A DNA stretch of 38,564 nt from UHGV virus genome UHGV-1336581. The stretch is one strand, 5' to 3'. The translations under genes were made by a program, and so were the position numbers. This stretch comes from a virus. Positions 772 through 38,500 of this stretch are shown here, one piece after another (within the stretch, counting starts at the first letter, position 1; each line of letters begins with the position of its first letter). The notes under the pieces are model-generated. The model saw only the letters and a program-made list of their open reading frames with translations. It was not told the origin of the DNA and made no database searches.

Positions 772-790
772 TTAAGAGGAGAAACGAAGT

Positions 791-1588: not shown

Positions 1589-1589
1589 G

Positions 1590-2585: not shown

Positions 2586-2587
2586 TT

Positions 2588-4580: not shown

Positions 4581-4725
4581 TCTGGGTCTGGGGATTCCTT
4601 GGTCCTAGCCTATCCCGCAGTTATCCATTAACTCGGCTTCTTTGACGTTTCCGCTTCTGATTTGCGGTACATGATGTTTCCTCAATTTGCACCTGCTGTA
4701 TCAGCGAGGTGAGAGATAACTACAA

Positions 4726-5052: not shown

Positions 5053-5055
5053 TTT

Positions 5056-8414: not shown

Positions 8415-8839
8415 TGGAACTGTGGCTGACGGTGAACGGTAAACGCACCTGCGCCAGCGCACCGCTGGATCCGCTGACCCGCGCCGTGGTGATTTCCCTG
8501 TTTACCTGGCGGCGGGCGGAGCCTGATGACAACGCCGACGTCCCGATGGGATGGTGGGGGGATACCTGGCCTGCGGTACAGAATGACCGTTACGGCTCCC
8601 GGCTGTGGCTGCTTCAGCGCAGCAAACTGACCAATCAACTGGTGCAGACGGTAAAGGGGTATATCCGCGAATGCCTGCAATGGATGATTGATGACGGCGT
8701 GGTGTCCCGTATTGATCTGGATATCCGCCGCACCGGGATTAATGAACTGGGTAACAGTATCACTCTCTGGCGTCGTGACGGACCGGTAATGATTTCTTTT
8801 GATGATCTGTGGAGTGCGATAACGCATGGCGGACAGTGA
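8411..8839 (+). CDS. GP46-family baseplate protein (gpW-like)
   Basis: 142-aa protein between the V-like and J-like genes, translationally coupled to both. Confidence 0.6.
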   Translation: MMELWLTVNGKRTCASAPLDPLTRAVVISLFTWRRAEPDDNADVPMGWWGDTWPAVQNDRYGSRLWLLQRSKLTNQLVQTVKGYIRECLQWMIDDGVVSRIDLDIRRTGINELGNSITLWRRDGPVMISFDDLWSAITHGGQ

Positions 8840-9884: not shown

Positions 9885-10459
9885 CAAACGATGATTACAT
9901 CCGCCTGTTATCGGCACTGTTGCCGCCCGGTCCGGCGTGGTCAGCCAGCGATCCGGCGATTGCCGGTGCGGCACCGTCATTAACCCGTGTTCATCAGCGT
10001 GCGGATGCCCTGATGCGGGAGCTGGATCCGCGCACCACCACTGAACTGATAAACCGCTGGGAGCGTCTGTGCGGTCTGCCGGATGAATGTATTCCGGCGG
10101 GAACGCAGACCCTTCGCCAGCGTCAGCAACGGCTGGATGCGAAGGTTAACCTGGCGGGCGGCATCAACGAGGATTTTTACCTTGCACAGCTTGCTGCCCT
10201 GGGGAGACCAGACGCCACCATCACGCGATACGACAAAAGCACGTTCACCTGCTCATCTGCATGTACTGACGCTGTGAACGCGCCGGAATGGCGGTATTAC
10301 TGGCAGGTCAACATGCCAGTCGCCACCAACACCACCTGGATGACATGTGGCGATCCCTGTGATTCCGCACTGCGTATCTGGGGCGACACAGTTGTCGAGT
10401 GTGTGCTTAACAAACTCTGCCCGTCGCATACCTACGTAATTTTTAAATATCCGGAGTAA
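9875..10459 (+). CDS. Tail protein, YmfQ / Mu gp48-like
   Basis: 194-aa protein directly upstream of the tail fibre gene, overlapping the J-like gene stop. Confidence 0.6.
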
Positions 10460-10462
10460 TCC

Positions 10463-11113
10463 ATGCATCGTATAGACACGAAAACCGCGCAGAAGGATAA
10501 GTTCGGCGCGGGTAAGAACGGTTTTACCCGTGGTAACCCCCAGACCGGCACGCCTGCCACCGTTCTGGATGATGACTACTTTGACATGTTGCAGGAAGAA
10601 CTTTGTAGCGTTGTTGAGGCATCCGGTGCCAGTCTGGAGAAGGCGCAGCACGACCAGCTGCTTACCGCGCTTCGTGCGCTGCTGTTAAGCCGCAAGAATC
10701 CGTTTGGCGATATCAAATCGGATGGCACCGTGAAAACGGCTCTCGAAAACCTTGGTTTGGGAGAAGCGGCGAAAAGGGATGTAGGCACAGGAGAAAATCA
10801 GATACCGGATATGTCAGCCTGGAAAAGAAATCCGAGTTCTAATCGCTGGAGAAAATTGCCTGATGGAACCATCATTCAAATGGGAATATCAGCATCAGGG
10901 CCATTAGGCTCACCTGTAAATATCACCCTGCCGATATCTTTCAGCAATACCAATTATTGTGTTGTTGCATCGTACGATAATGCACGGTCAGATGTGTCAA
11001 CAATGGTTAGTTTTGCAGCGTTACCTGTTTCACCATCGCAATTTTCCCTGATGTCATCTGTGACTGAGCAAGGAATAAATCCTTTTGCTTACTGGATTGC
11101 TTTTGGAGATTAA
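10463..11113 (+). CDS. Tail fibre protein: constant N-terminal part fused to variable C-terminal segment (current orientation of the invertible region)
   Basis: The ORF crosses the left recombination site near 10741-10766 (...[10 protein letters not shown]...); the part downstream lies inside the invertible segment. Confidence 0.7.
10741..10766. repeat. Invertase crossover site, left (gix/pix-like, inside tail fibre gene)
   Basis: TCTCGAAAACCTTGGTTTGGGAGAA is an imperfect inverted copy of the site at 12636-12661; 14 contiguous bases identical (TTGGTTTGGGAGAA). Confidence 0.65.
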
Positions 11114-11116
11114 TAA

Positions 11117-11536
11117 ATGGACAGATACTTCTATTCACAAAAAGAAAATGGTTTTTTTACCGATTTAAATAAAGCACCTTCAGATGTTGTTGAGATAACC
11201 ACGGATGAATGGCTGTTACTACTGGATGGTCAGGATAATGGCATGAAAATAGTCAGCAATCAGGAGGGATATCCGGTTTTGACAGAGCAACCACCTTTAT
11301 CAAAAGAAAACCTTATTGCATTGGCGGATTTGAAAAAAAGAAAACTTATTAATGAAGCCAACGAGCACATGAACAGCAGACAATGGCCTGGTAAAGCGGC
11401 TATTGGTCGTCTGAAAAGTGAGGAACTGGCGCAATATAATTTGTGGCTGGATTATCTGGACGCACTGGAACTGGTTGATACCTCCAGTGCTCCAGATATT
11501 GAATGGCCTACGCCTCCGGCAGTTCAGGCCAGATGA
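11117..11536 (+). CDS. Tail fibre assembly protein (Tfa, active-orientation copy)
   Basis: C-terminal ...VDTSSAPDIEWPTPP motif typical of Tfa chaperones; directly follows the fibre gene. Confidence 0.7.
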   Translation: MDRYFYSQKENGFFTDLNKAPSDVVEITTDEWLLLLDGQDNGMKIVSNQEGYPVLTEQPPLSKENLIALADLKKRKLINEANEHMNSRQWPGKAAIGRLKSEELAQYNLWLDYLDALELVDTSSAPDIEWPTPPAVQAR

Positions 11537-12113
11537 CATCCGGCGCGGTGCTGGTATCTGTTGCCGTCACCGCGTCAATGTAATCCAGCACAGCGTTAAG
11601 TCTGGTTGTTTCTGCCTGCGTCAGTTTACGTCCGGCCTGTAATTTCAGCTGAATCAGACTAATGGAAGCCATTGCTGCATCAATCAGTGACTGGCGCTGT
11701 GCTTCTGCCGCGTCTACTGCGGCATTATGCTGTGCCTCAGTATCTGTCACCCATTTCTCACCATCCCATTTATCGTATGGCGTTAACGGGACGATAGTTG
11801 TTGTATTTTCAGGGTAATCACCCGGAGTTGTGATTTCTTTTGATTCTCCCGTTTCGGTGTTATAGACAACTTCACCGCGATGGTCTGGCACATATTCCCA
11901 TGAGTTTAAATCTGCCGAACGGCAGATTGCATAACCAGCCTTATGTGTTCCAGGAGCATCTAAACAGGAATATGCAGGGATACCGACACCCACAGCAAGA
12001 TATTCAGTTGATGCAGAAATATACTCCCGTATCTCACTGTCATAGTTATAAACGGTAATCTCTCCTGCCTTTGTGGCAATAAATTTACTATTTAAGATGG
12101 CGTTATACATCAT
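11508..12113 (-). CDS. Tail fibre assembly protein (alternate Tfa inside the invertible segment)
   Basis: C-terminal ...TDTSTAPDVIWPELPEA; 3' end overlaps the plus-strand tfa convergently, as in Gin/Pin/Cin invertible regions. Confidence 0.7.
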   Translation of the reverse strand: MMYNAILNSKFIATKAGEITVYNYDSEIREYISASTEYLAVGVGIPAYSCLDAPGTHKAGYAICRSADLNSWEYVPDHRGEVVYNTETGESKEITTPGDYPENTTTIVPLTPYDKWDGEKWVTDTEAQHNAAVDAAEAQRQSLIDAAMASISLIQLKLQAGRKLTQAETTRLNAVLDYIDAVTATDTSTAPDVIWPELPEA

Positions 12114-12688
12114 GCAGCCCTCACAATGTAATTAAATGAAATATTACGTGGGCGTGTCTCTGCTGCACCGACAATACTGGTACTCAACCCCGTCGCTGTT
12201 CGTTTGTTATTTTTATTTCCTTCAATCAGACAGTTGTAATCATCATTACCAATTAACGAATTAGTGGCATCAATACCGTCCGGGGACAAGGCATTAGTTG
12301 TAGAACTTAAAGTCAGCATCTCGTCTGAACTTGGAAGATTTTTTAATGGTGTTTCATTGCGAGAAATACCCGCGTAAAAAAAGGACTCATGCCTGTGCGC
12401 TTCAAAAGAGTCATCCTGAAGACTTAGCAAGGTACGTCCCGCATCCACTCCACGCCCGTCATCCCAGCCACGAATAAACTCACCACGTAAATCAGGCAAT
12501 TTATTTGTCGGATAAGCCTTTGCCAGTTCCGGGTATTCTTCAGCAGAAAAAGCGGCACCGTTGCATTTCAGCCAGCCTGTTGGCGGAGTGGCGGAAGGCC
12601 ACGGAACAGGCACGCCAACGGGTAATGCCGAACCTTCTCCCAAACCAACGTTTATGAAAATGCAGAAATAACGAGCAAATGGCATCAT
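12110..12688 (-). CDS. Alternate tail fibre C-terminal segment (silent in this orientation)
   Basis: Minus-strand ORF whose 5' end abuts the right recombination site; the GLGEG junction mirrors GLGEA of the expressed fibre. Codons upstream of the crossover site are not a real N-terminus. Confidence 0.6.
   Translation of the reverse strand: MMPFARYFCIFINVGLGEGSALPVGVPVPWPSATPPTGWLKCNGAAFSAEEYPELAKAYPTNKLPDLRGEFIRGWDDGRGVDAGRTLLSLQDDSFEAHRHESFFYAGISRNETPLKNLPSSDEMLTLSSTTNALSPDGIDATNSLIGNDDYNCLIEGNKNNKRTATGLSTSIVGAAETRPRNISFNYIVRAA
12636..12661. repeat. Invertase crossover site, right (gix/pix-like, just upstream of pin)
   Basis: TTCTCCCAAACCAACGTTTATGAAAA; its reverse complement matches the left site; lies immediately 5' of the invertase gene. 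Confidence 0.65.
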
Positions 12689-13269
12689 TCCTGCTTTTGT
12701 CAGGGATATCTACCATGCTTATTGGCTATGTACGTGTGTCAACAAATTACCAGAACACAGATCTACAACGTAATGCGCTGAACTGTGCAGGATGCGAGCT
12801 GATTTTTGAAGACAAGATAAGCGGTACAAAGTCCGAAAGGCCGGGACTGAAAAAACTGCTCAGGACATTATCGGCAGGTGACACGCTGGTGGTCTGGAAA
12901 CTGGACCGACTGGGGCGCAGTATGCGGCATCTTGTCGTGCTGGTGGAGGAGTTGCGCGAACGAGGCATCAACTTTCGTAGTCTGACGGATTCAATTGATA
13001 CCAGTACCCCAATGGGGCGCTTTTTCTTTCATGTGATGGGGGCCCTGGCTGAAATGGAACGAGAACTGATTGTTGAACGAACAAAAGCTGGACTGGAAGC
13101 TGCTCGCGCACAGGGACGAATTGGTGGACGTCGTCCCAAACTTACACCAGAACAATGGGCGCAGGCCGGACGATTAATTGCAGCAGGAATTCCTCGCCAG
13201 AAGGTGGCGATCATCTATGATGTTGGTGTATCGACACTGTATAAGAAGTTTCCGGTCGGAGATAAATGA
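12679..13269 (+). CDS. pin: Serine recombinase, DNA invertase Pin/Gin/Hin family
   Basis: MLIGYVRVSTNYQNTDLQRNAL...GDTLVVWKLDRLGRSM...HTH C-terminus; near-identical to e14 Pin as I recall it. Real start probably the MLIGY Met about 12 codons in. Confidence 0.9.
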   Translation: MASFLLLSGISTMLIGYVRVSTNYQNTDLQRNALNCAGCELIFEDKISGTKSERPGLKKLLRTLSAGDTLVVWKLDRLGRSMRHLVVLVEELRERGINFRSLTDSIDTSTPMGRFFFHVMGALAEMERELIVERTKAGLEAARAQGRIGGRRPKLTPEQWAQAGRLIAAGIPRQKVAIIYDVGVSTLYKKFPVGDK

Positions 13270-19061: not shown

Positions 19062-19107
19062 ATTCGTAATGCGAAGGTCGTAGGTTCGACTCCTATTATC
19101 GGCACCA
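19062..19107 (+). other. 3' fragment of a tRNA-Thr gene (about 46 nt, ends ...GGTTCGACTCCTATTATCGGCACCA); attachment-site core
   Basis: T-arm GTAGG/TTCGACT/CCTAT, acceptor 3' strand and CCA present, anticodon-loop CGTAATG partly present, but no 5' acceptor strand (GCCGATA) upstream, so not an intact tRNA. Match to thrW is from memory. Confidence 0.6.
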
Positions 19108-19220
19108 TTCTAACGTCTCCCCAAGTCTACTCAAGTATTTAAAAACCTCTTATAATCCGCATGTTAGCGCCCCTTTTAGTCTTTTGACGTCTACTTAAGT
19201 ACCCCAAAATCTACAGTCAA

Positions 19221-19242
19221 TTGGGGGTACTTTTGGGGGTAT
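19221..19242 (+). repeat. TTGGGGGTACTTTTGGGGGTAT tandem motif (candidate integrase arm-type site)
   Basis: Identical 22-mer recurs at 38399-38420; inverted copies of TGGGGGTAC near 19197 and 19263 flank it; lies directly upstream of int. Confidence 0.5.
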
Positions 19243-19273: not shown

Positions 19274-20488
19274 GTGAAACTCAATGCCCGTCAAATAGAC
19301 ACTGCCAAGCCAAAAGAGAAGGCTTACAAGCTGGCTGATGGTGGTGGTCTGTATCTCCTGGTAAAACCTAGTGGAGGAAAATACTGGCGCTTTAAATATC
19401 GTGTAGCTGGTAAAGAGAAGCTGTTAGCACTAGGTGTGTATCCTGAAGTTACCTTGGCTGATGCTCGTGCAAAACGTGAAGAAGCTAAAAGGGGTATCGC
19501 TGGGGGTATCGATCCGATGGAAGCGAAACGAGAGGAAAAGATTGCCCGGGAAACGCAGTTAAACAATACCTTCAAAGATATTGCCCTTGAGTGGCACAGC
19601 AGCAAATTAAAAAAATGGTCTGCTGGTTATGCTTCAGATATCCTCGAAGCCTTCAACAAAGATGTGTTCCCTTACATTGGCAAAAAACCAATTGCCGAAA
19701 TCAAACCACTTGAACTTCTGAATGTGCTGCGACGCATCGAGGGGCGCGGTGCTACAGAAAAAGCCAAAAAAGTGAGGCAGCGGTGCGGGGAAGTTTTCCG
19801 CTATGCAATAGTCACTGGTCGCGCAGAGTATAACCCTGCCCCAGATCTTACTAGCGCGATGCAAGGCCATGAATCTAATCATTATCCTTTCCTCACAGCC
19901 AAAGAATTGCCTGATTTTTTCAAGGCATTGTCCAGTTACTCAGGAAGTGCATTGGTTGTTATGGCGGCTCGTCTACTGATTATCACTGGTTTGCGAACTG
20001 GCGAACTGCGCGGTGCATTATGGGATGAAATCGATCTCAACAAGGCTATCTGGGAGATACCTGCTTCACGGATGAAAATGCGTCGCCCTCATGTGGTGCC
20101 TTTGTCTAAGCAGGCTCTTTCTCTTATTGGGCAGATTAAAGAATTAACTGGTAATTATCCGCTTATGTTTCCCGGCCGTAATGATCCAAGGAAAACAATG
20201 AGCGAGGCTAGCATAAACCAAGTATTTAAACGCATCGGCTATAACGGAAAGGTTACTGGTCATGGATTCCGGCACACCATGAGCACGATTTTACATGAGC
20301 AGGGCTATAACACCGCGTGGATAGAAACGCAGCTTGCACACGTTGATAAGAACTCAATTCGTGGCACGTACAATCATGCGCAATATCTGGACGGGCGGCG
20401 CGAGATGCTCCAGTGGTACGCCGACTATATGGATTCGCTCGAACATGGCGGTAACGTGGTGCATGGCAAGTTCGGAAAATGTGGATGA
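19274..20488 (+). CDS. int: Tyrosine integrase, P4-type (N-terminal arm-binding domain)
   Basis: LNARQIDTAKPKEKAYKLADGGGLYLLVKPSGGKYWRFKYRVAGKEKLLALGVYPEVTLADARAKREEAK is the P4-integrase N-terminal signature; C-terminal HxxR...Y catalytic region (GHGFRHTMSTIL...HV...RGTYNH); GTG start, adjacent to the tRNA fragment. Confidence 0.9.
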   Translation: MKLNARQIDTAKPKEKAYKLADGGGLYLLVKPSGGKYWRFKYRVAGKEKLLALGVYPEVTLADARAKREEAKRGIAGGIDPMEAKREEKIARETQLNNTFKDIALEWHSSKLKKWSAGYASDILEAFNKDVFPYIGKKPIAEIKPLELLNVLRRIEGRGATEKAKKVRQRCGEVFRYAIVTGRAEYNPAPDLTSAMQGHESNHYPFLTAKELPDFFKALSSYSGSALVVMAARLLIITGLRTGELRGALWDEIDLNKAIWEIPASRMKMRRPHVVPLSKQALSLIGQIKELTGNYPLMFPGRNDPRKTMSEASINQVFKRIGYNGKVTGHGFRHTMSTILHEQGYNTAWIETQLAHVDKNSIRGTYNHAQYLDGRREMLQWYADYMDSLEHGGNVVHGKFGKCG

Positions 20489-20610
20489 CTGGTTGCGTAT
20501 ACAGTAGTAGACTTTGAGCGACGAAAGAAAAGGCTGTGTCTAGGGTCGCTCCCGAAAATCCGTACACCTCGACGGACTGGTACAGCCACTACAGTAGAGG
20601 ACGCTGAGGT

Positions 20611-21641: not shown

Positions 21642-21839
21642 ATGTCAAATACGCTTATTCGTTTAACAGAAGTTCAGCGTAGAACTGGATATAGCAAGGC
21701 ATGGATTTATCACCTTATGGGGCAAGGTAAATTTCCTGCATCAGTTAAAATTGGCTCGCGAGCTATTGCTTTCGTTGAGAGTGAAATTGACGAGTGGATT
21801 AATCAGCGTATTGCGGAATCACGCGGAACAGCTACCTGA
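21642..21839 (+). CDS. alpA: AlpA-family transcriptional regulator
   Basis: 65-aa HTH protein, LIRLTEVQRRTGYSKAWIYHLMGQGKFPASVKIGSRAIAFVESEIDEWI matches the AlpA/prophage CP4-57 regulator family. Confidence 0.85.
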   Translation: MSNTLIRLTEVQRRTGYSKAWIYHLMGQGKFPASVKIGSRAIAFVESEIDEWINQRIAESRGTAT

Positions 21840-21916: not shown

Positions 21917-22717
21917 ATGAAATTTCCAAAAACGCCCGTACAGGGGCGGGGCTTCGTTCGGCCTGAAAACCAGAATCTGCAAAATTTCGGCGAAATTATC
22001 CCGATTATTTCCGGCGTTATTGGCGGGAGTGAAACCACTATTGTTAGCGCCAGAGCGTTACATAAGGCGTTAGGTGTAGGGCGCGTTTTCCGTTCGTGGA
22101 TCAAGGGGCGCATTGAAGAATACGGGTTCACGGAAGGCGTGGATTATGAGGTTGTTGAATATTTGAGCCGACCCGATCCGGTGAGCGCAAAATCTCGCCA
22201 GCAAACCGCTCTTGAGTACATCATCACAGTGAACATGGCGAAAGAACTGGCGATGGTCGAACGTACCGAACAGGGCCGCGCCGTTCGCCAGTACTTTATC
22301 AAATGCGAGGAGGAGCTACACAAGGTTGCGCCTGTTCGTTCCGCAGCGTTACGCCGGGAACTGAAAGCCCGTATCACAGTTGCCAGCTACTTTAAGCCAA
22401 TGTGTGCCGCGCTGGAGGCGTACCGGGCTGAACTGGGTAAAAACACACTCCAGCACCACTACACCACGGAAGCGAGCATGCTGGCGCGTATCGTGCTGGG
22501 TGGCATGACTGCAAAACAGTGGGCACTGGCGAACGGCATTACAGGCGAACCACGCGACCACATGAGCACGTTGCAGCTTGAGCACCTTTCTTACCTTGAG
22601 CAGAGCAATATCACGCTGATTGAGTTAGGCCAGGACTACCACCAGCGGAAGGCTGAATTAATTCGTCTTTCGCAGCGTTGGTTAGCCCGTCGCATGGAGG
22701 AAAACAGCCATGTGTAA
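21917..22717 (+). CDS. Phage antirepressor-like DNA-binding protein (Ant/Rha/KilA-N-type N-terminal domain)
   Basis: N-terminal TIVSARALHKALGVGRVFRSWIKGRIEEYGFTEGVDYEV resembles antirepressor-type DNA-binding domains; domain assignment is tentative. Confidence 0.45.
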   Translation: MKFPKTPVQGRGFVRPENQNLQNFGEIIPIISGVIGGSETTIVSARALHKALGVGRVFRSWIKGRIEEYGFTEGVDYEVVEYLSRPDPVSAKSRQQTALEYIITVNMAKELAMVERTEQGRAVRQYFIKCEEELHKVAPVRSAALRRELKARITVASYFKPMCAALEAYRAELGKNTLQHHYTTEASMLARIVLGGMTAKQWALANGITGEPRDHMSTLQLEHLSYLEQSNITLIELGQDYHQRKAELIRLSQRWLARRMEENSHV

Positions 22718-23430
22718 CGCTCTGACCGTTACAAAAAGAGAAAGCGCCCCGTTGCCGGAGCGCCTTTGTGAACGAATAGCCTACTGCGCCATATTGCTTA
22801 CTGTCTACGAGGCAGATTATAGCGTTGTGGTCGCACAGAGTGAAGGCGCTGATCACCGTTACTACAGCACGCCAGAAATGCAGAATATTTTGCTGCAAAA
22901 TGTCGTTGATCACACTGTCCGAAAAGCAAAAAATTTTGCTGGTGGCGCGACTGATGCGATTTTGTCAGGTCGCCAGGTGCTGATCAATCTGATGTCTGAT
23001 TTCGTTCTGGATAAAACAAAGGCGACCGCAGAGGGCCGCCAGTGGGAAAGCTACATACTTGAACGCATCGCCAACAATGCCAGATTTGCGGCTGGTGGGC
23101 AATGTGTCAGCTTTGCACCAATGACTCTATGTTTAACTGAGGGTCATTATGGTGAATATGCTGGCTTGCTGGTGGGCTATTCCTGCTCTTTAACATCGCC
23201 ATGCCGCGATGTTTTCCAGGTATGCGATCCCATTTTTGTGCGCCTGTACTCTTTAAGGAATTTCTCAAGGATAAACGCACAGGGCGCGAATCTGTTTGAC
23301 TCATGCTCGTACGCTATCTTTCTGCGCTGTCTTTTCCGTGCCGGTGATGGTGTATTGGTTGATTCTTTGTTGGTCATGGCGCTGCCCTGTAAAACGATGC
23401 ACCGTAGTCCCTCACACCACGGCGCTGGTG
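22710..23430 (+). CDS. Hypothetical protein, probably disrupted (5' part of a 485-codon open frame)
   Basis: First ~150 codons look protein-like; downstream the same frame becomes Cys/Ser/Arg-rich and runs through a convergent minus-strand gene and a divergent promoter region without a stop. End coordinate is arbitrary. Confidence 0.3.
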
Positions 23431-23434
23431 ATGG

Positions 23435-23614
23435 TTACTCCTGTTCTTTGGCCTTGCGGCGCTGGCGGCGTTTGATCTCGCCTTTTGCAGCAGTAACTAA
23501 AAAACCAGCGGTACTTTCGCCAGGTTCTTTAAGTTGCTCAATATCATCCATTACTTCATGTGGGATTCTGACAGTTGTCATTTGTGATTTTGCGTTCTTT
23601 GCACCAGTTGCCAT
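23435..23614 (-). CDS. Small ribbon-helix-helix-like DNA-binding protein
   Basis: MATGAKNAKSQMTTVRIPHEVMDDIEQLKEPGESTAGFLVTAAKGEIKRRQRRKAKEQE has a beta-strand/helix pattern like CopG/Arc; divergent from the gene starting at 23802. Confidence 0.4.
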   Translation of the reverse strand: MATGAKNAKSQMTTVRIPHEVMDDIEQLKEPGESTAGFLVTAAKGEIKRRQRRKAKEQE

Positions 23615-23801
23615 TTCTGGATCTCCTAAAAATTGGTGTATGTCAGTATACGCAAAAAAAATGATAAAAAAAGGCTTGAAGTGTATTTCACCAGTAAGTA
23701 AATTAAAAAGCAAAGGTGAAATACACCTAAAAGAGCAACGCCCCGCAGTGCTCGCAACACATGCAGGGCGTCTAACCAAACCGTTAAATGAGGTAACGAT
23801 T

Positions 23802-24167
23802 ATGGCTGGAACACAGCATACTCAAACTCACCCTAAATTTATATACACCTTCCTGGCGGTGCACCGTGATTGCATGGCTGACGGTAAAAACACTGTACAC
23901 GTAGCCGCCGATACGCTGGTTGATGCCTGCAAGATGCTCAATGACATGGGCTATATCTCGGCAACATGGAAAGGGCGCGAAGAAAACACGCTGTTTATTC
24001 AGAAATGCGAAAACAATTTTATATGGCGTTTTATCGCCCTGAGTACGGCACAACCGCGCGTGATTCACATCGAGGCCACCAGCGAACAGGAAGCACGCCA
24101 GCAATCTCCTGATGGCTGCGTGATGGTATTCACTGCCCGTATTCGCCAGGAGGTGGAGCATGTGTAA
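23802..24167 (+). CDS. Hypothetical protein
   Basis: Internal ATG of the long open frame, preceded by GAGGTAACGATT (RBS-like) and a divergent AT-rich promoter region; 122 codons; stop overlaps next start. Confidence 0.5.
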   Translation: MAGTQHTQTHPKFIYTFLAVHRDCMADGKNTVHVAADTLVDACKMLNDMGYISATWKGREENTLFIQKCENNFIWRFIALSTAQPRVIHIEATSEQEARQQSPDGCVMVFTARIRQEVEHV

Positions 24168-25165: not shown

Positions 25166-25456
25166 ATGAAAAAGAAAAATTCTGGCTTTACTGCCAGCGG
25201 TCTCTCTCGGCCTGAAATCAGACACGGAGATATTTACCGCGACACCAGACGTGGGGGACGAGTGGTTATTCGTCACGTTACGCCAGGCAATATCACCTAC
25301 CGCCGTGAGGCTTACGAATATGACTGCGTAATGCCGCGCCGTCAGTTTGAGCGTGATTTTATTCTGGTTGAAAACAAACAACAGGCGGTGGCGAGACGTG
25401 CAGCCACGAATATTAAAAAAATCCGGGCAATGTTGGTTGCGGGAGGTAAGAAGTGA
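25166..25456 (+). CDS. Hypothetical small basic protein
   Basis: 96 codons; stop overlaps the start of the helicase-like gene. Confidence 0.45.
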   Translation: MKKKNSGFTASGLSRPEIRHGDIYRDTRRGGRVVIRHVTPGNITYRREAYEYDCVMPRRQFERDFILVENKQQAVARRAATNIKKIRAMLVAGGKK

Positions 25457-26865
25457 AAAACGCACCGAATTTAAAATATCAGCCGAAGGATAAATTCACC
25501 GAGGTAATCATTTTTGCCGGGACGGATGCTTACGCCCATGCTCAACACTGGATTGAAAGCGAAGGACGAAAACACGGCGATAACGTACCACCTGTTTACC
25601 TGGGGCCAAAGCAACTGGCAGACCTGGCGAATATCCGCATTGTCGACGATGAACGCCGCTTTGCGCGTGTCTATCTCGCGGGGGAGATCGAACCAATCCA
25701 GATCAATGCTATCGCTGAAAAGCTGGCGCTGGCTGGCGTACAGGAGGCGAAATTATACAAAGGTATCACCGACGGGGAGCCGGAGAACTGGCACGACTAC
25801 CTGCAACGGATCCGCGAACAGGCTGAGCGCGGGGAAATACTTACTGACGAGCAATACAGCCAGCGAAAAACCACGCTACCAATGAGCATTGGATCGGAAG
25901 GATATGATTCACAGCTTAGCTATGTAGTTAAGGGCGTGATTCCGGCTAATTCGCTATGTAGCACATACGGTGCGAGCGGTTCTTATAAGTCGTTCCTTGC
26001 GTGTTCGTGGGCGTGTCATGTTGCTACCGGTATCCCGTGGGGAGGTCGCAGGGTTGTACATGGTGCGGTGATGTATGTCGTTGGTGAGGGCGGGATCGGT
26101 GTTCCTCGTCGTATCAAGGCATGGGAACTGGTGAACAGTGAGCAGGTGAAAAATCTATACCTGGTAAATCGTCCAATTTTTCCGGCCGCACCGGGTGATG
26201 TTGATGAAATGGTTATTGCTGCCCGACAGGTTGAGCAGGAAACGGGTAAACCTGTACGCATGATTATTCTGGATACTCTGGCGCGTTGCTTTGGTGGCAG
26301 CGATGAAAATGATGCGCGGGATATGGGGGCATTTGTCCATGGATGTGACGAACTGAAACGACGTACAGGCGCTACAGTGCTGGTAATTCACCATTCCGGC
26401 AAGGATGAAACAAAGGGTGCGCGCGGTTCCAGTGCGTTTCGTGCAGCACTGGATGCAGAATACCGGATACGCCGTGAAGGTGCAGGCAGTGAAGCCCTGG
26501 TTATCGCATGTACCAAGATGAAGGATGCGGAGGAACTGAAAGAAATGGCTTGCGATTTGCGCGAGGTTGAGCTTTTCAAGGATGAGGGCGGGGAGTTAAT
26601 CACGTCGCTGGTGCTGGAGGATAAGCCCCGTCCGCCGGTTGAACTGGAGCGCATCGAGGAAGCTGGGAACAAGACGGAGAATCACGCCGCACTATGGGGT
26701 TGTATTCGTTCACGCACGCAACGCGGAGATAAATGTACTATTCCGTTGTTGCGCGATGACATGAAAAAGCTGGGGTATGAGATGAAAAACTTCCGGCGCT
26801 GGCTGTACAAGCTGGAAGGTGACGGCGTAATCGCTATTGACGGTGATGATGTGCGCCCACTGTAA
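25453..26865 (+). CDS. RecA-fold AAA ATPase, replicative helicase-like (RepA/DnaB-type)
   Basis: Walker A GASGSYKS, Walker B-like MIILDTLARCFGG, and VIHHSGKDETKGARGSSA typical of RepA/AAA_25-type helicase-ATPases of integrative elements. Confidence 0.7.
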   Translation: MKNAPNLKYQPKDKFTEVIIFAGTDAYAHAQHWIESEGRKHGDNVPPVYLGPKQLADLANIRIVDDERRFARVYLAGEIEPIQINAIAEKLALAGVQEAKLYKGITDGEPENWHDYLQRIREQAERGEILTDEQYSQRKTTLPMSIGSEGYDSQLSYVVKGVIPANSLCSTYGASGSYKSFLACSWACHVATGIPWGGRRVVHGAVMYVVGEGGIGVPRRIKAWELVNSEQVKNLYLVNRPIFPAAPGDVDEMVIAARQVEQETGKPVRMIILDTLARCFGGSDENDARDMGAFVHGCDELKRRTGATVLVIHHSGKDETKGARGSSAFRAALDAEYRIRREGAGSEALVIACTKMKDAEELKEMACDLREVELFKDEGGELITSLVLEDKPRPPVELERIEEAGNKTENHAALWGCIRSRTQRGDKCTIPLLRDDMKKLGYEMKNFRRWLYKLEGDGVIAIDGDDVRPL

Positions 26866-27266
26866 AAAGTGAAGCGTAAAAGTGAGGGGGGAAGGGAATA
26901 TTTAAAAATCATCCCTGTTTTCCTCACTTTCTCACCTGTATATAGATCAAAAAATGAGGAATTAAAAAAACATTGCAAAACAACATATTACAACAATAAA
27001 GAAAACGACTGAGGAGCAGAACAAGAATAACAAAAAGTGAGGAACAAAAGTGAGGAATGGTGAGTTAATAGAAATGAGGTAATAAAAATAACAGGTAGGT
27101 TAAAAAACATACCATGCAAGATATTAACTAAAACTTAACTATTTACCTCACTTTTGCGTATATATAAGGATTAAAAAGTGAGTGCTTAAAAATATATTTA
27201 AAATCATATTGTTATTAACTTCATAAATTCTCACTGCGCAGCAGGTGAGGAATTAAAAAATCAGGA
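26866..27266. repeat. AT-rich iteron region (many copies of AGTGAGG / TGAGGAA in both orientations); candidate replication origin
   Basis: Repeated AAAGTGAGG(G/A/T), GGTGAGGAATT, AATGAGGAATT, and inverted CCTCACTTT within about 400 bp directly downstream of the helicase-like gene. Confidence 0.4.
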
Positions 27267-27917
27267 ATGTTAAAAATGAAAACAGAACGTTACATACCTC
27301 AGGGTATGACTTACATAGAGCGTGAAGAGCTGAAAAGTTTTGCGACATCATGTGGACTATGCGGCGATATTCACCGCTTTACCAGAACTCTGATCATGAT
27401 TGCGCACTGGATGCGACAGGGACAGAGCGTAAGTTTTACAGAATATGCCGGGCGGTGGTTGTGGCCACGAATAATACGCCGATGATTTTTACCGAACACG
27501 CCGGAAGCGTTGCCCGTCGCCGTGTTATTTTCCAGTTTAACTGTCGCGTCAGTGAGGAAGATAAGGACCCCGGAAAAAGAGCGGGCGCTGCTGCTGAGGA
27601 AACGGAACAGCAAAGAGGCACTGGAGGTAAAGCTGTACGCCTTCTGTGACCACCTGAAGCGGCTAGCTGATTGCGTGGGAATGCTGGTGGATTATGCCGG
27701 TAAGGTTGCTGCGCCAAATACTCAGATGGATGCTTTATTCTGCGGCATGGTCGGCGAACTGACTAACCTACGCGTCATGGCGCAGCGGGCAGAAGTAGAG
27801 GCAGAATTGCTTGACGTTATCCGCAACGATCCGGATTTTAACGAACAGGCAAAAAACCGCAGAGCGGGTGGAATCTGGACACGCTTAAATCCTTTACTCG
27901 TGGTGTGTCTGCCGTAA
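27267..27917 (+). pseudogene. Decayed P4-alpha/D5-type primase-helicase C-terminal remnant (fragments in three frames)
   Basis: Three overlapping partial ORFs in different frames; one carries VVVATNNTPMIFTEHAGSVARRRVIFQFN, resembling the conserved C-terminal motif of D5/P4-alpha helicases. Tentative. Confidence 0.35.
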
Positions 27918-28304
27918 GCAAGCAGACTGCAAACATTCTCGATTATCTGATGAACAGATTCTCACCGGTTAAACCACTGGCATCTGATGATGTTCAGGCA
28001 TTCGGTAGGTTCGAGCGCAGCAGTCAGGAAAATGCTGCTGTCGATGTACAGCGGAAAGTAGCAGGAACTGTCTGATGCATTACTACGGGCTCCTGGACTC
28101 GATATGGAGCAGCTGAAACGTCTCGCATTTTCACGAATCATGTCTGAGAACGGGCAGGTTATTAGTGCAGTTGCCGCTCTTAAAACATGACTTAGCTTGA
28201 GAACGAATCAACAAGTTAGAGAAAAATCACCCCTAACAGCTTAAAATTTACATAAAAAGACTTTGACTTCTTATAATTGCTGCTATTATCAGCATAAGAA
28301 AAAT

Positions 28305-28334
28305 AAAACCTCGCCAGACAGCGGGGTTTTTCTG
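28305..28334 (+). terminator. Rho-independent terminator
   Basis: AAAACCTCGC-CAGACA-GCGGGGTTTT hairpin (10-bp stem, one mismatch) followed by a T run. Confidence 0.5.
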
Positions 28335-28408
28335 TCTAAAAAGAACTATAAAAACAACATGTAGTGTCGAAGCATTGACGCAAGCACTACATTTAGCGGA
28401 GTACTAAC

Positions 28409-28633
28409 ATGGCTGAAATCAATTACGAAAAAATTCTCTTGGAAACGGGACTTGTGGCATCAAATACTTCAGGTATCCAGTTCCCACAACAATTTGGCGC
28501 AATGAGCCATGAGTTCGGCGGCTTAAGCGGTGTTGCAAGTTTTTCTCATCAACATGAGATGACTAAGCTTAAGTGTTCTACCAGAACAACTGGCTACTCA
28601 ACTTTGCATGTAAGCACCACTACAAAAGCTTAA
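28409..28633 (+). CDS. Hypothetical small protein (upstream partner of the protease gene)
   Basis: 74 codons, 18-nt gap before the protease gene; no family recognised. Confidence 0.4.
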   Translation: MAEINYEKILLETGLVASNTSGIQFPQQFGAMSHEFGGLSGVASFSHQHEMTKLKCSTRTTGYSTLHVSTTTKA

Positions 28634-28651
28634 CAAGGACGTTACCATCCC

Positions 28652-29548
28652 ATGCCCAATCTGGCCCAAGTCTTGGAGGAAATCCAAAGCCTCCAAGACG
28701 ATTCTCGCTTTGATATTGTCCGCCGTAAATACATAAAAGCTTTGAGCGACAGTACTGATAGAAACGTAATATGTTACTACACAGACTTTTTACATAACGG
28801 TAATCATCAGCATGTCAGCATCAATGATGATGACAAAAATGGTTTCATGGCTGTTGTTAACGGAATGGATAGAACGAAAGGCTTAGACCTTTTCTTGCAT
28901 ACCCCTGGTGGTTCTATAACTGCGGCTGAGTCTCTGGTTTACTACCTTAAAAAGCTTTTTAATGGTGATATTCGGGCCATTGTTCCTCAAATGAGCATGT
29001 CTGCAGGAACAATGATTGCGTGTGCCTGCAAAGAAATTGTAATGGGGCATCATTCAAGTATCGGACCTTTTGATCCTCATATCTTTGGTGGTCTTTCAGC
29101 TTATGGTATTTTGGAAGAGTTAAAAAATGCTATTGATAGCATTCAAAAAGAACCTTCCAGCCTCCCGATTTGGCAAACAATCATCTCGCGCTACCCACCT
29201 ACCATTTTTGATACAGCTAGCAAAGCTATTCAGCTTGCCGATGATTTGGTTACTGAATGGTTAAAAAATGGAATGCTTAAAGATTTACCTGAACCTCGGC
29301 GTAGCGAACTCGCCACTGCGATTGTCAAAAGCTTAAACAATCGTACGGATACGAAGGATCATTCTCGGCATATCCACGCAGAGAGAGCCATTGAATTAGG
29401 TTTGCGGATCACTCAGCTTGAAGACCATCCCCAGTTTCAGGACGCAGTTCTTACAGTACATCACTGTTGTACACAAACCCTTTTCAACACTCCTACAGTT
29501 AAGCTTATTGAAGGCTCTAATAACCAATCCTTTATTCGGCATATCTAA
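28652..29548 (+). CDS. SDH-family / ClpP-SppA-like Clp-fold serine protease
   Basis: [20 protein letters not shown] and [19 protein letters not shown] resemble the catalytic-serine region of ClpP/S49-type peptidases. Confidence 0.6.
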
Positions 29549-29866: not shown

Positions 29867-30180
29867 CTAGGACAACAGATCACGTACCCGGTTTGCCGTC
29901 CAGTCCGGGATATGCTCAATGACGTAACGCAACCATTTTTCTGGCTCCTCCTTGTTCAGACGGCACGTGCCGATCAGCAAGTACAGCACCGCAGTATGTT
30001 CGCCACCGCTGTTGGAACCTGCGAACAACCAGTTTTTCCGGCCCACTGCCACACCACGTTAGGCGTTTTCGGCGATGTTTTTGTCGATTTCCACCCAGCC
30101 ATTATTGCAGTATACGTTCAGCGCATCTATATGAATGCATCCCGTTTCGTAGTTTTGACGTTGATGGTAGATGAAAGTAC
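29867..30180 (-). mobile_element. IS66-family transposase 3' remnant (frameshifted C-terminal ~100 codons only)
   Basis: Minus-strand translation gives ...ALNVYCNNGWVEIDKNIAENA and, after a frameshift, VGRKNWLFAGSNSGGEHTAVLYLLIGTCRLNKEEPEKWLRYV, matching the conserved IS66 TnpC C-terminus; no N-terminal transposase sequence. Confidence 0.6.
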
Positions 30181-30749
30181 CGGGCATGAAACAATCAGTA
30201 AAAACGATGGGGCAAAGCATGACTAAGCTGACCATTAACAGAAAACCGAAAGGCATTTACGGCACGCCGCAGAAAACGACGCAGGCGGCACAGGAGCAGG
30301 ATAAAACCCCATCGGCGCATAAAGTGATGCTCGGTAACCAGAAAGCGCAGCAGAAGCTCACAGGGGCGACATCGTGGCGGCATATGACCAAACGCCAGCG
30401 CAAAAATCGCAGGCGCGTTAACCGCCTTACTGAGTTGTGGCCTGAATTATTCAACCGGGAAGCACCGAAGCCGCTTAAGGTGGGAATATTTGACGACCTG
30501 ATGCAGAATCTCGCCGTCAGGGGGCTGGCATTCGGGCCAGGGGCATTACGTGCGACGCTGGCATCTTATGCGCAGTGTCCGCGCTATTACCGCGCCTTAA
30601 TGGCTGGTGGGGTACGCTACGACCTGAAAGGCCAGCCGTGCGGCGAGGTGACACCACAGGAACAACAGGACGCAGAAACGCGGCTGGTGGCGCTGAATGA
30701 GAAGCGCAAACGTCAGCGCCGGGCAGCAAAGGAGAAAACAGGCGCATGA
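30171..30749 (+). CDS. FinO/ProQ-family RNA chaperone-like protein
   Basis: WPELFNREAPKPLKVGIFDDLMQ and ALRATLASYAQCPRYYRALMAGGVRYDLKGQPCGEV match the ProQ/FinO domain; real start probably an internal Met, since the 5' end overlaps the IS66 remnant. Confidence 0.65.
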   Translation: MKVPGMKQSVKTMGQSMTKLTINRKPKGIYGTPQKTTQAAQEQDKTPSAHKVMLGNQKAQQKLTGATSWRHMTKRQRKNRRRVNRLTELWPELFNREAPKPLKVGIFDDLMQNLAVRGLAFGPGALRATLASYAQCPRYYRALMAGGVRYDLKGQPCGEVTPQEQQDAETRLVALNEKRKRQRRAAKEKTGA

Positions 30750-31033
30750 TTCACGACAGCAAAGCGGAAGCACTGGAAGCGCGTGGTCTGTACCGGAGAG
30801 CGGCGGCTCGGTGGGCTGAGGTCATCATGCTGGCGAATGATGACAAGGCACGGGAACAGGCGGCAAAACGTCGCGCGGAATGTATCCACAAGGCAGCACG
30901 CCCACCAGCAAGGCAGGATAATTTCGGGGAGATGCGCAAAACCATCAGCCGGGCACATGTCGGGATGGGATTACATCAGCCCAATGGTGAGGCATTCAGG
31001 AAATACCAAAAAAAGAACAATTGTAGTCAGTAA
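30746..31033 (+). CDS. PerC-like transcriptional activator family protein
   Basis: DSKAEALEARGLYRRAAARWAEVIM resembles the PerC N-terminal signature; ATGA overlap with the upstream gene. Confidence 0.5.
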   Translation: MIHDSKAEALEARGLYRRAAARWAEVIMLANDDKAREQAAKRRAECIHKAARPPARQDNFGEMRKTISRAHVGMGLHQPNGEAFRKYQKKNNCSQ

Positions 31034-36108: not shown

Positions 36109-37707
36109 ATGAGCGTGGCAATAAAAACAATGACACCAGTGTCATATTCTATAAAAGTTGATGCGATTAAGAAAAGATTATCATATTTTAGTGATGTTTC
36201 TTTTTTGAGAAATTTTTATGAACACTTCCAAAAAGTAAGGGATGTCGAGGTGGGTATTGTTTCCAATTTCCCTTGGTGTTGCTATCTGGCAATGAAATGG
36301 AAGTTTTGCATGAAGGAAAAAAAGCCTGCAAAAGAAATGAGTAAAAATGATTTTATTGATATTATCAACTTAATCTATAACTTGCAACTAGAAGCATCTA
36401 ATTTAATCGTTGATGATAAAGTTATGCTAAGCCTTAGACGAATGGTGATAAATCAGTTGCTTTATCAATCAACTGATAAATTTAATGCCAATTCATTAAC
36501 AAGACAGTATATTTGGTATTGCTTGAATGATGAATCATATTATAAAGATAAGTTTTTAGAATGTACTGGTTTACATTTGGAAAGCTATTACAAAATGGCA
36601 TGTTATTTTACCGCTATTTCATGTATTAATCCTGATATAGAATCAGAGGTTATTCCATTTAAACACTTGATAATAAACTTGGTTCCGATATTTGGTCCGG
36701 AACAAGTGAAAAGATTTTTGGAATTAACATGCTTAAAAATTGATGGTGTGAGAGATTTTATTGCCCCATATAAATTGGATAAAAACATTACCGCTGAGTA
36801 TTATGAAGATACACCATTCCTCAGTAAACCAATGTTTTTAGATGGCGATGGTGTAGTGATATTATGCAAAAGAATCATGAAGTCAGGGTTTGTCAACCTA
36901 GTTCCAGAATTGTTCAAGCAGGTCTATAAGGAATCTTATAAAGAAAAATTTGGTAAGACGATGGAACTTTATATTTCTCGCTTTCTTGATAAGTACAATT
37001 ATAACTTTAAGACTGAAAGTGAGGTTAAGAAGATTTATAGTGATAATGCAATAAAAAATTGCAAGTCCGTAGATTTTGTTATTTCAGAGGGAGATTCAAT
37101 AGTTTATATTGACTCGAAGGCAATAGAGCCTGCAAAGTTCGTTAAAACATCTAATAATGCTCAGTTGCTAAAGGAAAGGTTGAATAAGAGTTTTATTAAA
37201 GGGATTTATCAAGGTCAGGAATGTGCTTTTAACTTAAATAAAATAGAGATGAGAAAACCATCTTCGAAAGATTCAATGTTAATTGTGGTGCATCGGGATC
37301 ATCATATATCAAATGCAATGCTTGTGCAGGATTTTATTAACCCTGATTTATCAACTGAGTTATCTGAAAAATATCATAGTATCCCCATTGATCTAAAAAG
37401 AATTTACTATATAACAATTGATGAGTTCGAATTATTACTTATGATGTGTAAACAGAAAGAACTATCTATTAATGAGTTTATTGATATGTGTGTGGAAAAA
37501 GATTCATTCCCTCATACTCAGAAGTCTAATCTAAGCATGCACATATATGAATTTGCACCAGAGGGTATTGATGATGATCAATTGATTGTAAAAGGAAGAG
37601 ACTTACTGATTGATGATGTTATTGAAAATATGAAAGAGAGTGCATCAAAATGGTCTGGGAAAGTTGATATGTATCTTAAAATAAAAGATTATATTTTTAA
37701 TTGGTAA
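36109..37707 (+). CDS. Large hypothetical protein (AT-rich cargo); possible PD-(D/E)xK nuclease core
   Basis: 532-codon ORF in a very AT-rich block with an AT-rich upstream region; central SVDFVISEGDSIVYIDSKAIE fits an hhhD...(D/E)xK pattern. The nuclease assignment is an inference only. Confidence 0.55.
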   Translation: MSVAIKTMTPVSYSIKVDAIKKRLSYFSDVSFLRNFYEHFQKVRDVEVGIVSNFPWCCYLAMKWKFCMKEKKPAKEMSKNDFIDIINLIYNLQLEASNLIVDDKVMLSLRRMVINQLLYQSTDKFNANSLTRQYIWYCLNDESYYKDKFLECTGLHLESYYKMACYFTAISCINPDIESEVIPFKHLIINLVPIFGPEQVKRFLELTCLKIDGVRDFIAPYKLDKNITAEYYEDTPFLSKPMFLDGDGVVILCKRIMKSGFVNLVPELFKQVYKESYKEKFGKTMELYISRFLDKYNYNFKTESEVKKIYSDNAIKNCKSVDFVISEGDSIVYIDSKAIEPAKFVKTSNNAQLLKERLNKSFIKGIYQGQECAFNLNKIEMRKPSSKDSMLIVVHRDHHISNAMLVQDFINPDLSTELSEKYHSIPIDLKRIYYITIDEFELLLMMCKQKELSINEFIDMCVEKDSFPHTQKSNLSMHIYEFAPEGIDDDQLIVKGRDLLIDDVIENMKESASKWSGKVDMYLKIKDYIFNW

Positions 37708-38398
37708 TTAAGCAAGGGTGTTATTATCAACACCCTTGCTCATAGTCTTACAATATTAAATGTTGTGTTTTTTATTTATATATTTTATTGCCCATCAAGC
37801 TATTAATTCATCTCGTTGTTTGAGATAGGTTGAGCATTTGTATTTTTTTATCAATTTTATCTGTATGAGCTTAAGCAGCTTCAATAATATCTGCGTTAAA
37901 TTACGCTTCATTCAGAGACGTGCTTGCTATTGACATGTAATCCATGTGCAACAAGATTCCTGCCATAACTTATGCGTTTCAGAGCCGAATCATGGACTGC
38001 TTTAAGTCATTTTTGTAGGGAAAACATGTTCACATGTCAGCACTGATTTGTTTCATCATATCCACTATCTCGAATTTCTGTGTCGATAGATGAATGCAGA
38101 CGGAAATATGTGAATTTTGTGCACGCTCTGCTATTAAGCGAAAACGAGCGTGGGTATATCAACTAATAATTGCCCTCATTAACATAGGTGGTGGCGGGTA
38201 TAATCTCTGTAACCCAGTTGTTCGTGACTACCTACCTCGTCAAATTTTCACACCCGCGAAATAAAAAATACTTCACGCTAGTGGTTATCCTTGGGCATCC
38301 ACCAGCCCTTCATCATTGCCAGCCTGTGAGGCTGAGGCTCGAAGAAAAAGAGTGCTAGATAGTCGATTTTTGCCTGGTTTGGGATAAGGGAAAATTTA

Positions 38399-38420
38399 TT
38401 GGGGGTACTTTTGGGGGTAT
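38399..38420 (+). repeat. TTGGGGGTACTTTTGGGGGTAT, second copy (candidate integrase arm-type site at the distal island end)
   Basis: Exact 22-mer also at 19221-19242. Confidence 0.5.
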
Positions 38421-38480
38421 CTATAAAAATGAAATATGAAAATGTCATTAAATATCAATGTATTTGTTGTTTATGTTTTG

Positions 38481-38500
38481 TTCCTATTATCGCACCATTT
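38481..38500 (+). other. Degenerate copy of the tRNA 3' att core (TCCTATTATCG-CACCATT)
   Basis: Matches TCCTATTATCGGCACCATT at 19091-19109 with one missing G; no tRNA body upstream. Confidence 0.5.

Follow-up and report, generated by a model that had tools for sequence, protein, structure and literature searches.

What is the AT-rich, repeat-filled DNA that directly follows a helicase-like gene in the virus genome UHGV-1336581? The stretch analysed here (38,564 nucleotides, one strand; "the window" below) carries the pair at 25453–27266, and a sequence-only reading had taken it for a candidate replication origin of a chromosomal island, a helicase followed by iterons being in its view the usual layout of satellites. 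Our comparison with related elements supports that proposal: we put the probability at roughly 0.8 that the block at 26866–27266 is the vegetative origin of a satellite of the phage-inducible chromosomal island (PICI) type, read by the island's own helicase (25453–26865). The case is built on a layout conserved among relatives, on covariation between residue 446 of the helicase and base 4 of the repeat, and on the PICI-type element in which the two are set.

A RecA-fold ATPase gene followed by an AT-rich block, as first described, is indeed what we find. The gene, on the plus strand, is an intact open reading frame (ORF) that starts with GTG and encodes a 470-aa helicase resembling RSF1010 RepA (RecA fold, AAA_25). 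Pfam AAA_25 covers residues 151–319 (E=3.1e-44), PHROG 2850 matches the protein end to end, and a profile search finds 1g8y, the RSF1010 RepA hexameric helicase, at E=3.8e-5. Identical copies are labelled 'helicase RepA family protein' at NCBI, and a cluster with 258 member sequences matches the protein at 98% identity. The gene and its upstream neighbour are divided as follows.

25166–25456, plus strand: DUF4222 gene (Pfam DUF4222, E=1.4e-19).
25453–25842, plus strand: N-terminal alpha/beta module of the helicase, about 130 aa, with a predicted local distance difference test (pLDDT) score of about 88.
25900–26622, plus strand: RecA-fold ATPase core of superfamily 4 (SF4), like RSF1010 RepA and T7 gp4.
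26674–26862, plus strand: C-terminal winged-helix domain, residues 408–470, the putative iteron reader.
26788–26790, plus strand: codon AAC for Asn446, in the motif K-N-F-R-R-W-L.

The core combines the RecA fold with Walker A (GASGSYKS), Walker B (IILDT) and the HHSGK...RGSS motif, the last serving as the H3/H4 and arginine-finger mark of a helicase, and these motifs are kept family-wide. In Walker A (25966–25992, residues 172–180) a Tyr or Phe replaces the usual Gly before the Lys, a feature that is invariant in 71 homologues. The stop codon of the DUF4222 gene overlaps the GTG start of the helicase by 4 nt (GTGA), as it also does in loci L002–L006, L087–L099 and L103, and in relatives the DUF4222 gene is always the upstream neighbour of the replication (Rep) gene. 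Longer homologues carry Zn_Ribbon_Prim and Toprim_3 ahead of AAA_25, which makes them gp4-like primase-helicases with an extra winged helix; the window helicase has no recognisable primase.

AlphaFold2 modelled the helicase in three parts, a confident N-terminal module (residues 1–130), a partly unreliable RecA-fold core and a confident C-terminal domain (residues 408–470). The last of these has a pLDDT of 80–93 and a helix-helix-helix-strand-strand topology, and its isolated model matches winged-helix DNA-binding domains only, with probabilities of 0.95–0.99 (PcaR, DtxR, LexA, histone H1 and MCM winged-helix domains). A Foldseek search with the full-length model gave generic RecA-fold matches only, whose global superpositions were meaningless. 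Pfam found nothing in the isolated pieces 1–136 and 390–470, even at E values up to 10, so the assignments of the N- and C-terminal domains rest on structure prediction; for the N-terminal module a Toprim-like fold is possible. A single polypeptide is thus predicted to join a hexameric-helicase-type ATPase, the AAA_25/RepA core, to a C-terminal winged helix, in which residue 446 is the N-cap directly ahead of the third helix (447–456).

Directly after the stop codon of the helicase, the block runs for 401 bp at 30% G+C, against about 50% G+C on both sides. It holds 13–14 copies of (A)AAGTGAGG(A) in both orientations; a scan for the degenerate core finds 13 sites, nine on the plus and four on the minus strand, plus one decayed site at 26869. 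The AGTGAGG and TGAGGAA repeats that had drawn attention to the block, likewise in both orientations, are far above chance in the window (12 against 3.1 expected and 19 against 5.0 expected), with five of each inside the block. Up to two mismatches allowed, AAAGTGAGGAA occurs 22 times in the window, and nine of these occurrences lie in 26879–27267. In order, the parts of the block are:

26866–26889, plus strand: iteron set 1, AAAGTGAAGC (degenerate) and AAAGTGAGGGG as two direct repeats from the stop codon on.
26920–26945, minus strand: inverted iteron pair TTCCTCACTTTCTCACCTG, leading into a conserved CCTGTATATAG element.
26950–26961, plus strand: lone direct iteron AAAAATGAGGAA, which reads AAGTGAGGAG in L099.
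26962–27005, no strand: A-rich spacer that separates the canonical unit's iteron sets.
27006–27085, plus strand: iteron set 2, five direct repeats, CTGAGGAG, AAAGTGAGGAA twice, GGTGAGTTA and AAATGAGGTAA.
27143–27185, no strand: second partial unit copy with TTACCTCACTTTTG (inverted iteron), GCGTATATATA and AAAGTGAGTGC (direct iteron), aligning with 26920–26961.
27187–27226, no strand: candidate DNA-unwinding element, the least stable 40-mer of the region.
27226–27252, no strand: terminal iterons TTCTCACTG (minus) and CAGGTGAGGAA (plus), just ahead of the next gene's ribosome site and start codon.

The repeats of set 2 are 10–14 bp apart, and CCTGTATA(T/C)A holds the same position in relatives. 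The window block is a 1.7-fold duplicated version of the canonical 200-bp unit. Its 400-bp form arises from a second, partial and degenerate unit copy at 27066–27266 and is found in the window and in a small sub-lineage of islands at thrW (L094, L095, L096, L099 and the degraded L097). The stretch 27143–27185 of this copy is conserved in L094–L099 and is switched to GTGGGG in L096. Short TTAACT(A) repeats in its second half (TTAACTAAAACTTAACTA and TATTAACT, at 27118–27135 and 27213–27220) are invariant in the six 400-bp-type sequences.

An unwinding-element analysis, suggested along with the original proposal, singled out 27187–27226, whose free energy of −37.8 kcal/mol (z=3.04) is the second lowest of any 40-mer in the whole window and which sits in a stretch invariant across all six 400-bp-type sequences. 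We regard it as the prime candidate for the unwinding element; the other candidate is the A-rich spacer at 26962–27005, with a 40-bp duplex free energy of about −43 kcal/mol against a window mean of −53.6. A DnaA-dependent origin of the plasmid type was set aside, there being no DnaA box (TTATNCACA, up to one mismatch) in 26866–27266 and no separate Rep initiator gene nearby. The block contains no terminator.

The helicase core is present in 778 of the 5426 complete E. coli genomes, mostly at 80–90% nucleotide identity, and the relatives that we opened are PICIs or capsid-forming PICIs (cfPICIs) with genes for single-stranded DNA-binding protein (SSB), PerC, major capsid, head-decoration and small-terminase (terS) proteins. 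A scan for the helicase in one genome per species added 80 further loci in Citrobacter, Xenorhabdus, Pectobacterium, Serratia, Morganella, Pantoea, Kosakonia and others, with proteins 51–70% identical over residues ~135–470, and nearly all of these loci have repeats in the 200–260 bp 3' of the helicase stop. The sequence-only reading was to fall if the repeats were not conserved in related elements. They are: the repeat architecture is kept in position, directly after the helicase stop, in ~85 relatives across Enterobacterales, and in every relative examined the repeats start at or within a few bases of that stop. They keep their place whatever gene comes next, be it SSB, a CoiA-like gene, an 83-aa ORF or a 257-aa ORF.

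Window positions 26863–27070 align end to end with a ~205-bp unit of the E. coli PICI and cfPICI relatives. In its first half, two or three direct repeats at the stop codon are followed by a spacer of ~25 nt and an inverted pair leading into CCTGTATA(T/C)A; in its second half, one direct repeat, an A-rich spacer of ~45 nt and three or four further direct repeats extend to the next start codon. In L002, L004, L005, L006 and L090 the final iteron overlaps both the ribosome-binding site of the following gene and its start codon (...GGTGAGGAATG), so a bound helicase could also affect expression of that gene. The window counterpart of this overlap lies at 27241–27270.

Such an overlap would also suit a transcriptional control region, in which the repeats are operators for the downstream operon, worked by the winged helix of the helicase or by some other regulator, and the AT-richness marks a promoter or H-NS silencing; the block does lie between two co-oriented gene sets and has two weak sigma-70-like matches in 27171–27218. 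However, 2.4 such matches are expected in shuffled sequence, the repeats stay with the helicase gene while the downstream gene varies, and at least 13 sites in two opposed sets around melt-prone spacers make the layout of an origin and not of an operator. The position is also that of the experimentally defined ori in EcCICFT073 and in the pathogenicity islands of Staphylococcus aureus (SaPIs) (PMC6092414, PMC9371898). We therefore consider control of transcription a very improbable explanation of the block, although it could coexist there with an origin function.

That the block is an origin read by the adjacent helicase, rather than simply one that lies beside it, is suggested by the way in which the two vary together. 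The repeats of one element share one core, and the cores differ among elements (GTGAGGA, GTGAGTA, GTGGGGA, GTGGGGGA and GTGCGGC were seen). We aligned the helicases and ranked the columns by mutual information with repeat class. Residue 446, in the motif K-x-F-x-R-W-L, came top with 1.60 bits over four residue states, tied with one variable linker column. The residue follows base 4 of the core according to a simple rule, N with A, H or K with G, and S or G with C, and this rule has 0 violations in the 82 loci that have a clear repeat class. Contigs for motif variants outside the first set were looked up afterwards; these fit as well, KGF occurring with GTGCGC or GTGCGG and KHL with GTGGG, and KNM, known already from L003, was again found with GTGAG. 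When changes are counted by parsimony on a neighbour-joining tree of the ATPase part alone, residue 446 must have changed at least 10 times and base 4 at least 9 times.

Two near-isogenic pairs with switched iterons, which give this covariation its strongest evidence, bring the comparison down to a few residues. The helicase of L096 (strain ETEC1748) is identical to that of the window at 454 of 470 residues (96.6%), with N446H among five differences in the last 80 residues, and all 11 homologous repeats, in both halves of its block, read GTGGGG instead of GTGAGG. The L002 and L004 helicases have four differences in their last 80 residues. The N-to-H change at 446 is the sole change in this segment common to both pairs. 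Side chains have usual base preferences, Asn going with adenine and Lys or His with guanine, and the residue-446/base-4 pairings fit these. The DUF4222 protein was considered as the iteron reader and rejected, since none of its residues follows the iteron class; a literature search on DUF4222 function returned nothing specific.

This covariation suggests that recognition of the iterons and loading are both, most likely, the work of the helicase itself, as with the SaPI Reps, and a sequence of events can be proposed on that basis. The sequence shows that the island has an integrase gene (int), an int-alpA RNA, alpA and attachment (att) sites. If it follows PICI biology, a helper phage would induce AlpA, the island would excise, and the rightward operon would express the translationally coupled DUF4222 and helicase genes. 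The comparative data argue strongly for binding of the C-terminal winged helix to the 13–14 iterons, (A)AAGTGAGG(A), with Asn446 at the start of the third helix presumably reading the adenine at core position 4. Opposed iteron sets would flank easily melted A/T stretches, 26962–27005 and above all 27187–27226. By analogy with the SaPIs, the bound protein would melt these stretches and the RecA-fold rings would load themselves on the single strands with no separate initiator or loader. Because the window version is without the Zn-ribbon/Toprim primase of the longer homologues, priming would depend on the host or helper, and synthesis would likewise be left to them. The iteron core would serve as the specificity label of the replicon, sister elements using GTGGGGA, GTGGGGGA and GTGCGGC with His, Lys and Ser/Gly at residue 446.

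In its fuller form, this proposal is a self-loading SF4 initiator-helicase with a 5'–3' motor of the bacterial type, whose specificity is set largely by residue 446, giving co-resident satellites orthogonal and compatible replicons, together with a bipartite 400-bp origin that melts within its invariant second half (27143–27252); we hold it to be slightly better than an even bet. A limited literature search found no characterised origin-binding winged helix fused to an SF4 motor.

Known systems help to place the module. The helicase-then-iteron layout, regarded from the start as typical of satellites, is the published layout of Gram-negative PICI origins, in which two iteron sets flank an AT-rich region 3' of rep (PMC6092414). 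A plasmid can replicate from the rep-ori segment of EcCICFT073, whose organisation is said to recur in several E. coli PICIs (PMC6092414); the construct tested there is called 'pri-ori', and its Rep may be of another type than the window helicase. Fillol-Salom et al. name four 'Pri-Rep' variants (AAN79964, AHG11293, CBG34588 and CAR08829), which may or may not include the window type. With the Gram-negative PICIs and cfPICIs (Fillol-Salom et al. 2018, PMC6092414) the window island shares int, AlpA, a rightward operon, att sites and a size of 10–20 kb, an ori directly 3' of the replication gene with iterons flanking AT-rich DNA, and PerC, Icd-like and AntA accessory genes. It differs in that its Rep is a RecA-fold RepA-like protein without a primase domain and in that the island is without capsid, terS and SSB genes. 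Genes for capsid, head decoration, terS and SSB accompany close homologues of its helicase-ori module in other islands.

In SaPIs, the iterons immediately 3' of rep are bound by the C-terminal winged helix of the Rep, which loads itself (PMC9371898). Rep1, PriRep5 and Rep2 (Qiao et al. 2022, PMC9371898) resemble the window helicase in joining a hexameric-helicase-type ATPase to a C-terminal winged helix, with iterons directly downstream, and the logic of an AT-rich centre and no separate initiator or loader is the same. In contrast, their motors are AAA+ proteins of superfamily 3 or 6 (SF3/SF6) with 3'–5' polarity, whereas the window motor is RecA-fold and SF4-like, with 5'–3' polarity expected; there is no sequence similarity between the two, and the iterons of SaPIs are five or six nucleotides long, against ~9–11 nt for the conserved unit in the window. 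With a RecA-fold, SF4-like motor in place of an AAA+ one, the window helicase would work like a SaPI Rep but is no homologue of it.

RSF1010 RepA is a bare 279-aa helicase, with origin recognition by the iteron-binding RepC and priming by RepB'. It is the nearest solved relative (PDB 1g8y, 1nlf and 1olo) and has no DNA-recognition domain of its own, whereas the window protein adds the ~130-aa N-terminal module and the C-terminal winged helix. T7 gp4 (Zn ribbon, Toprim and SF4 helicase) also has no origin-binding domain; compared with it, the window protein has lost or replaced the primase and has the winged helix. P4 alpha with its ori and cis replication region (crr) offers another enterobacterial satellite with a P4-type integrase and an iteron origin, and with helicase and origin binding in one polypeptide as predicted for the window, and the two repeat-bearing halves of the window block recall the bipartite P4 ori plus crr. 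Yet alpha is a primase with an SF3 helicase, and no psu, delta or sid genes were seen in the window island. The P4 ori and crr are also kilobases apart, with a repeat unrelated to the window iterons. Iteron plasmids (pSC101, R6K, RK2 and P1, with RepA, pi or TrfA) resemble the window module in having direct repeats spaced by about one helical turn and AT-rich DNA for unwinding and, as predicted for the window, recognition by a winged helix and incompatibility determined by iteron identity; their initiators, however, are not helicases and recruit host DnaA, DnaB and DnaC, whereas the putative reader in the window is part of the helicase.

A PICI rep-ori module would be of a known kind, and what these alignments appear to add is the residue-446/base-4 specificity rule and the SF4-like motor. 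For a common enterobacterial satellite class, a 'helicase RepA family protein' next to an unannotated gap would become a defined replicon with an annotated origin and initiator. If this is true, Gram-negative satellites reached the SaPI solution, an initiator that is itself the helicase, on an unrelated RecA-fold motor that normally needs loaders. The residue-446/base-4 rule, if it holds, would be a clean natural specificity switch, reprogrammable by one codon plus matching iteron changes; it would account for many related satellites being able to live together with no cross-talk between their replicons, and it would be usable for building orthogonal origins.

What element carries the module? 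Judged by its gene content and ends, the window carries a PICI-type satellite of ~19.4 kb integrated at thrW in E. coli, with these features:

19062–19107, plus strand: attL, a copy of the 3' 46 nt of tRNA-Thr (thrW), the left end of the island.
19274–20488, plus strand: P4-type tyrosine integrase (NCBIfam PRK09692 integrase domain, E=1.5e-91).
20533–20600, plus strand: int-alpA RNA motif between the integrase and the next gene (Rfam RF02996, 45.5 bits, gathering score 35.8).
21642–21839, plus strand: AlpA regulator (Pfam Phage_AlpA, E=6.9e-19).
21917–24167: AntA antirepressor and Icd-like domain.
28652–29548: SDH/ClpP-like serine protease, within a rare insert.
30171–30749: ProQ/FinO-like gene.
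30746–31033: PerC.
36109–37707: GapS1 family defence gene, right end of the island.
38478–38498, plus strand: attR, a degenerate copy of the tRNA-Thr 3' end (GTTCCTATTATCGCACCATT), the right end of the island.

The attL assignment is based on a 172-nt exact match to L094 557–728, which starts inside an annotated tRNA-Thr; a search of the window with ARAGORN gave no complete tRNA. Just within each end of the island (19220–19242 and 38398–38420) stands an exact copy of the 23-bp direct repeat ATTGGGGGTACTTTTGGGGGTAT, which may be an arm-type site of the integrase or an AlpA site. The integrase stands at one end, att sites flank the island, alpA lies downstream of int and the gene order is rightward, ORFs from int to GapS1 being nearly all on the plus strand; the replication gene is followed by two iteron sets flanking AT-rich DNA, the arrangement used to recognise a PICI ori (PMC6092414). 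Gram-negative PICIs have the same gene order, and AlpA is their master activator (PMC6092414). From one att site to the other there are no genes for tail or lysis; those for baseplate, tail fibre and other tail parts at 1–13269, left of the island, belong to a separate prophage. PICIs usually have genes for packaging or interference (capsid-like, terS), but neither a capsid nor a terS gene was found in the island, only the SDH/ClpP-like protease; SatelliteFinder's scheme would place it, like EcCIMP1, among the core-poor 'Type C' PICIs. The site between proA/thrW and yagU is also used by EcCIMP1, which was mobilised experimentally (PMC11773190).

The genomes of PICIs include cos or pac sequences of the helper (PMC6092414), and a non-coding, repeat-rich block might in principle be such a packaging site, or a recombination site, for proteins of the helper phage or the island. 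The block has no sequence like lambda cosN, however, and the att sites lie elsewhere (19062–19107 and ~38478–38498). Its repeat specificity tracks a helicase residue and not the terminase or integrase, and the same block occurs in relatives with and without terS. We give this explanation hardly any weight.

Several points tell against an origin read by its own helicase, or against one that still works, and the first concern the island itself, which shows signs of partial decay. Downstream of the block, a broken gene stands next to the trace of another Rep gene:

27267–27485, plus strand: 5' part of the downstream gene, broken at ~27450.
27452–27571, plus strand, frame +3: relic of an SF3 (DUF5906-type) Rep gene.

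The downstream gene is intact (257 aa) in L094, L095, L096 and L099, and the window shares only its first 183–192 nt with relatives; the segment at ~27450–28660 is a rare insert, present in only 6 of the 5426 complete E. coli genomes. The SF3 relic, at the breakpoint of the downstream gene, is 50% identical over 40 aa to residues 405–444 of the L100 Rep (E=1e-11). Pfam found nothing in the three broken frames of 27267–27920, and the relic was confirmed only by direct comparison with that Rep. Other pseudogenes occur in an identical annotated copy (frameshifted or partial genes and a transposase remnant), two iterons are weakened relative to strain A17 (L099), to GTGAAG at 26869, where L099 has GTGAGG, and to AATGAGG at 26954, and SSB as well as packaging genes were not detected in the island.

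These observations could mean that the PICI-derived module is a relic, out of function and a passive passenger in an element that is decaying and has lost its mobility. Against this, the helicase ORF is full length with all its motifs and closely matches its 258-member cluster, five complete E. coli chromosomes have the region 25453–27300 at 99.9–100% identity, the core that goes with N446 survives in at least 11 iterons, and int, alpA and both att sites are present; EcCIMP1, at the same site, is also without capsid and terS and was nevertheless mobilised (PMC11773190). We think a dead origin unlikely, while granting it more than the control-region and packaging explanations.

Other reservations concern how the origin would be read. 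The Walker A motif is atypical (GxSGS[Y/F]KS), though conserved across the family, and the AlphaFold2 model of the ATPase core is poor, with pLDDT below 50 at residues 133–176 and 315–407. A site resembling that of integration host factor (IHF), AATCATATTGTTA at 27202–27214, has one mismatch to the consensus; the window has 62 matches of this kind where 51 are expected, which is no enrichment and leaves the site without statistical support, to be kept as a lead. Replication, iteron binding, the melting site and the polarity are all inferred. Finally, the codon for residue 446 lies 75 nt ahead of the stop and less than 500 bp from every iteron, so co-inheritance by linkage could produce part of the association. 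Linkage does not explain the concerted state of all iterons or the two near-isogenic switches, and we retain the reading of the block as an origin recognised by its own helicase.

Sister islands with the same backbone indicate how such modules move. They carry SF3 (D5_N/DUF5906/Pox_D5) or DUF927 Reps with unrelated iterons in the same position, GGTAGACAGTT with SF3 Reps and TATCCCGCCA with DUF927 Reps. The N-terminal module of the window helicase and the N-terminus of the L100 Rep, which is of the SF3 type (D5_N/DUF5906/Pox_D5), share 92% identity over 129 aa, and the coding segment of the window module, 25453–25842, is 93–97% identical in nucleotides to DUF927/primase genes of sister islands (H49–H55). 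The counterparts compared with this segment were L100 4001–4387 and L101 4001–4385. Because the same N-terminal module occurs in RepA-type, SF3 and DUF927 Reps, three unrelated replication enzymes share one exchangeable module, and with a shared N-terminus of ~129 residues and its own iterons for each Rep type, the Rep-ori units behave as exchangeable cassettes.

CP018459.1 (L102), a circular 16,971-bp sequence deposited as the K. pneumoniae plasmid pKp_Goe_795-4, is an integrase-bearing cfPICI with capsid, terminase and head-tail adaptor genes, a helicase homologue with the KSF motif and GTGCGGCA iterons, and is probably an excised satellite assembled as a separate circle. Sister Rep types are also found on the small 'plasmids' NZ_CP148328.1 (10.8 kb) and NZ_CP069874.1 (16 kb). 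L097 (positions 1–2935; E. coli PapRG-04-4) has a primase-type Rep and, after it, a fragment of a RepA-type helicase as a pseudogene, its C-terminal 135 aa with the KHF motif, and the halves of the old iteron block have mixed GTGGGG and GTGAGG repeats; this locus looks like the replacement of a Rep cassette caught midway.

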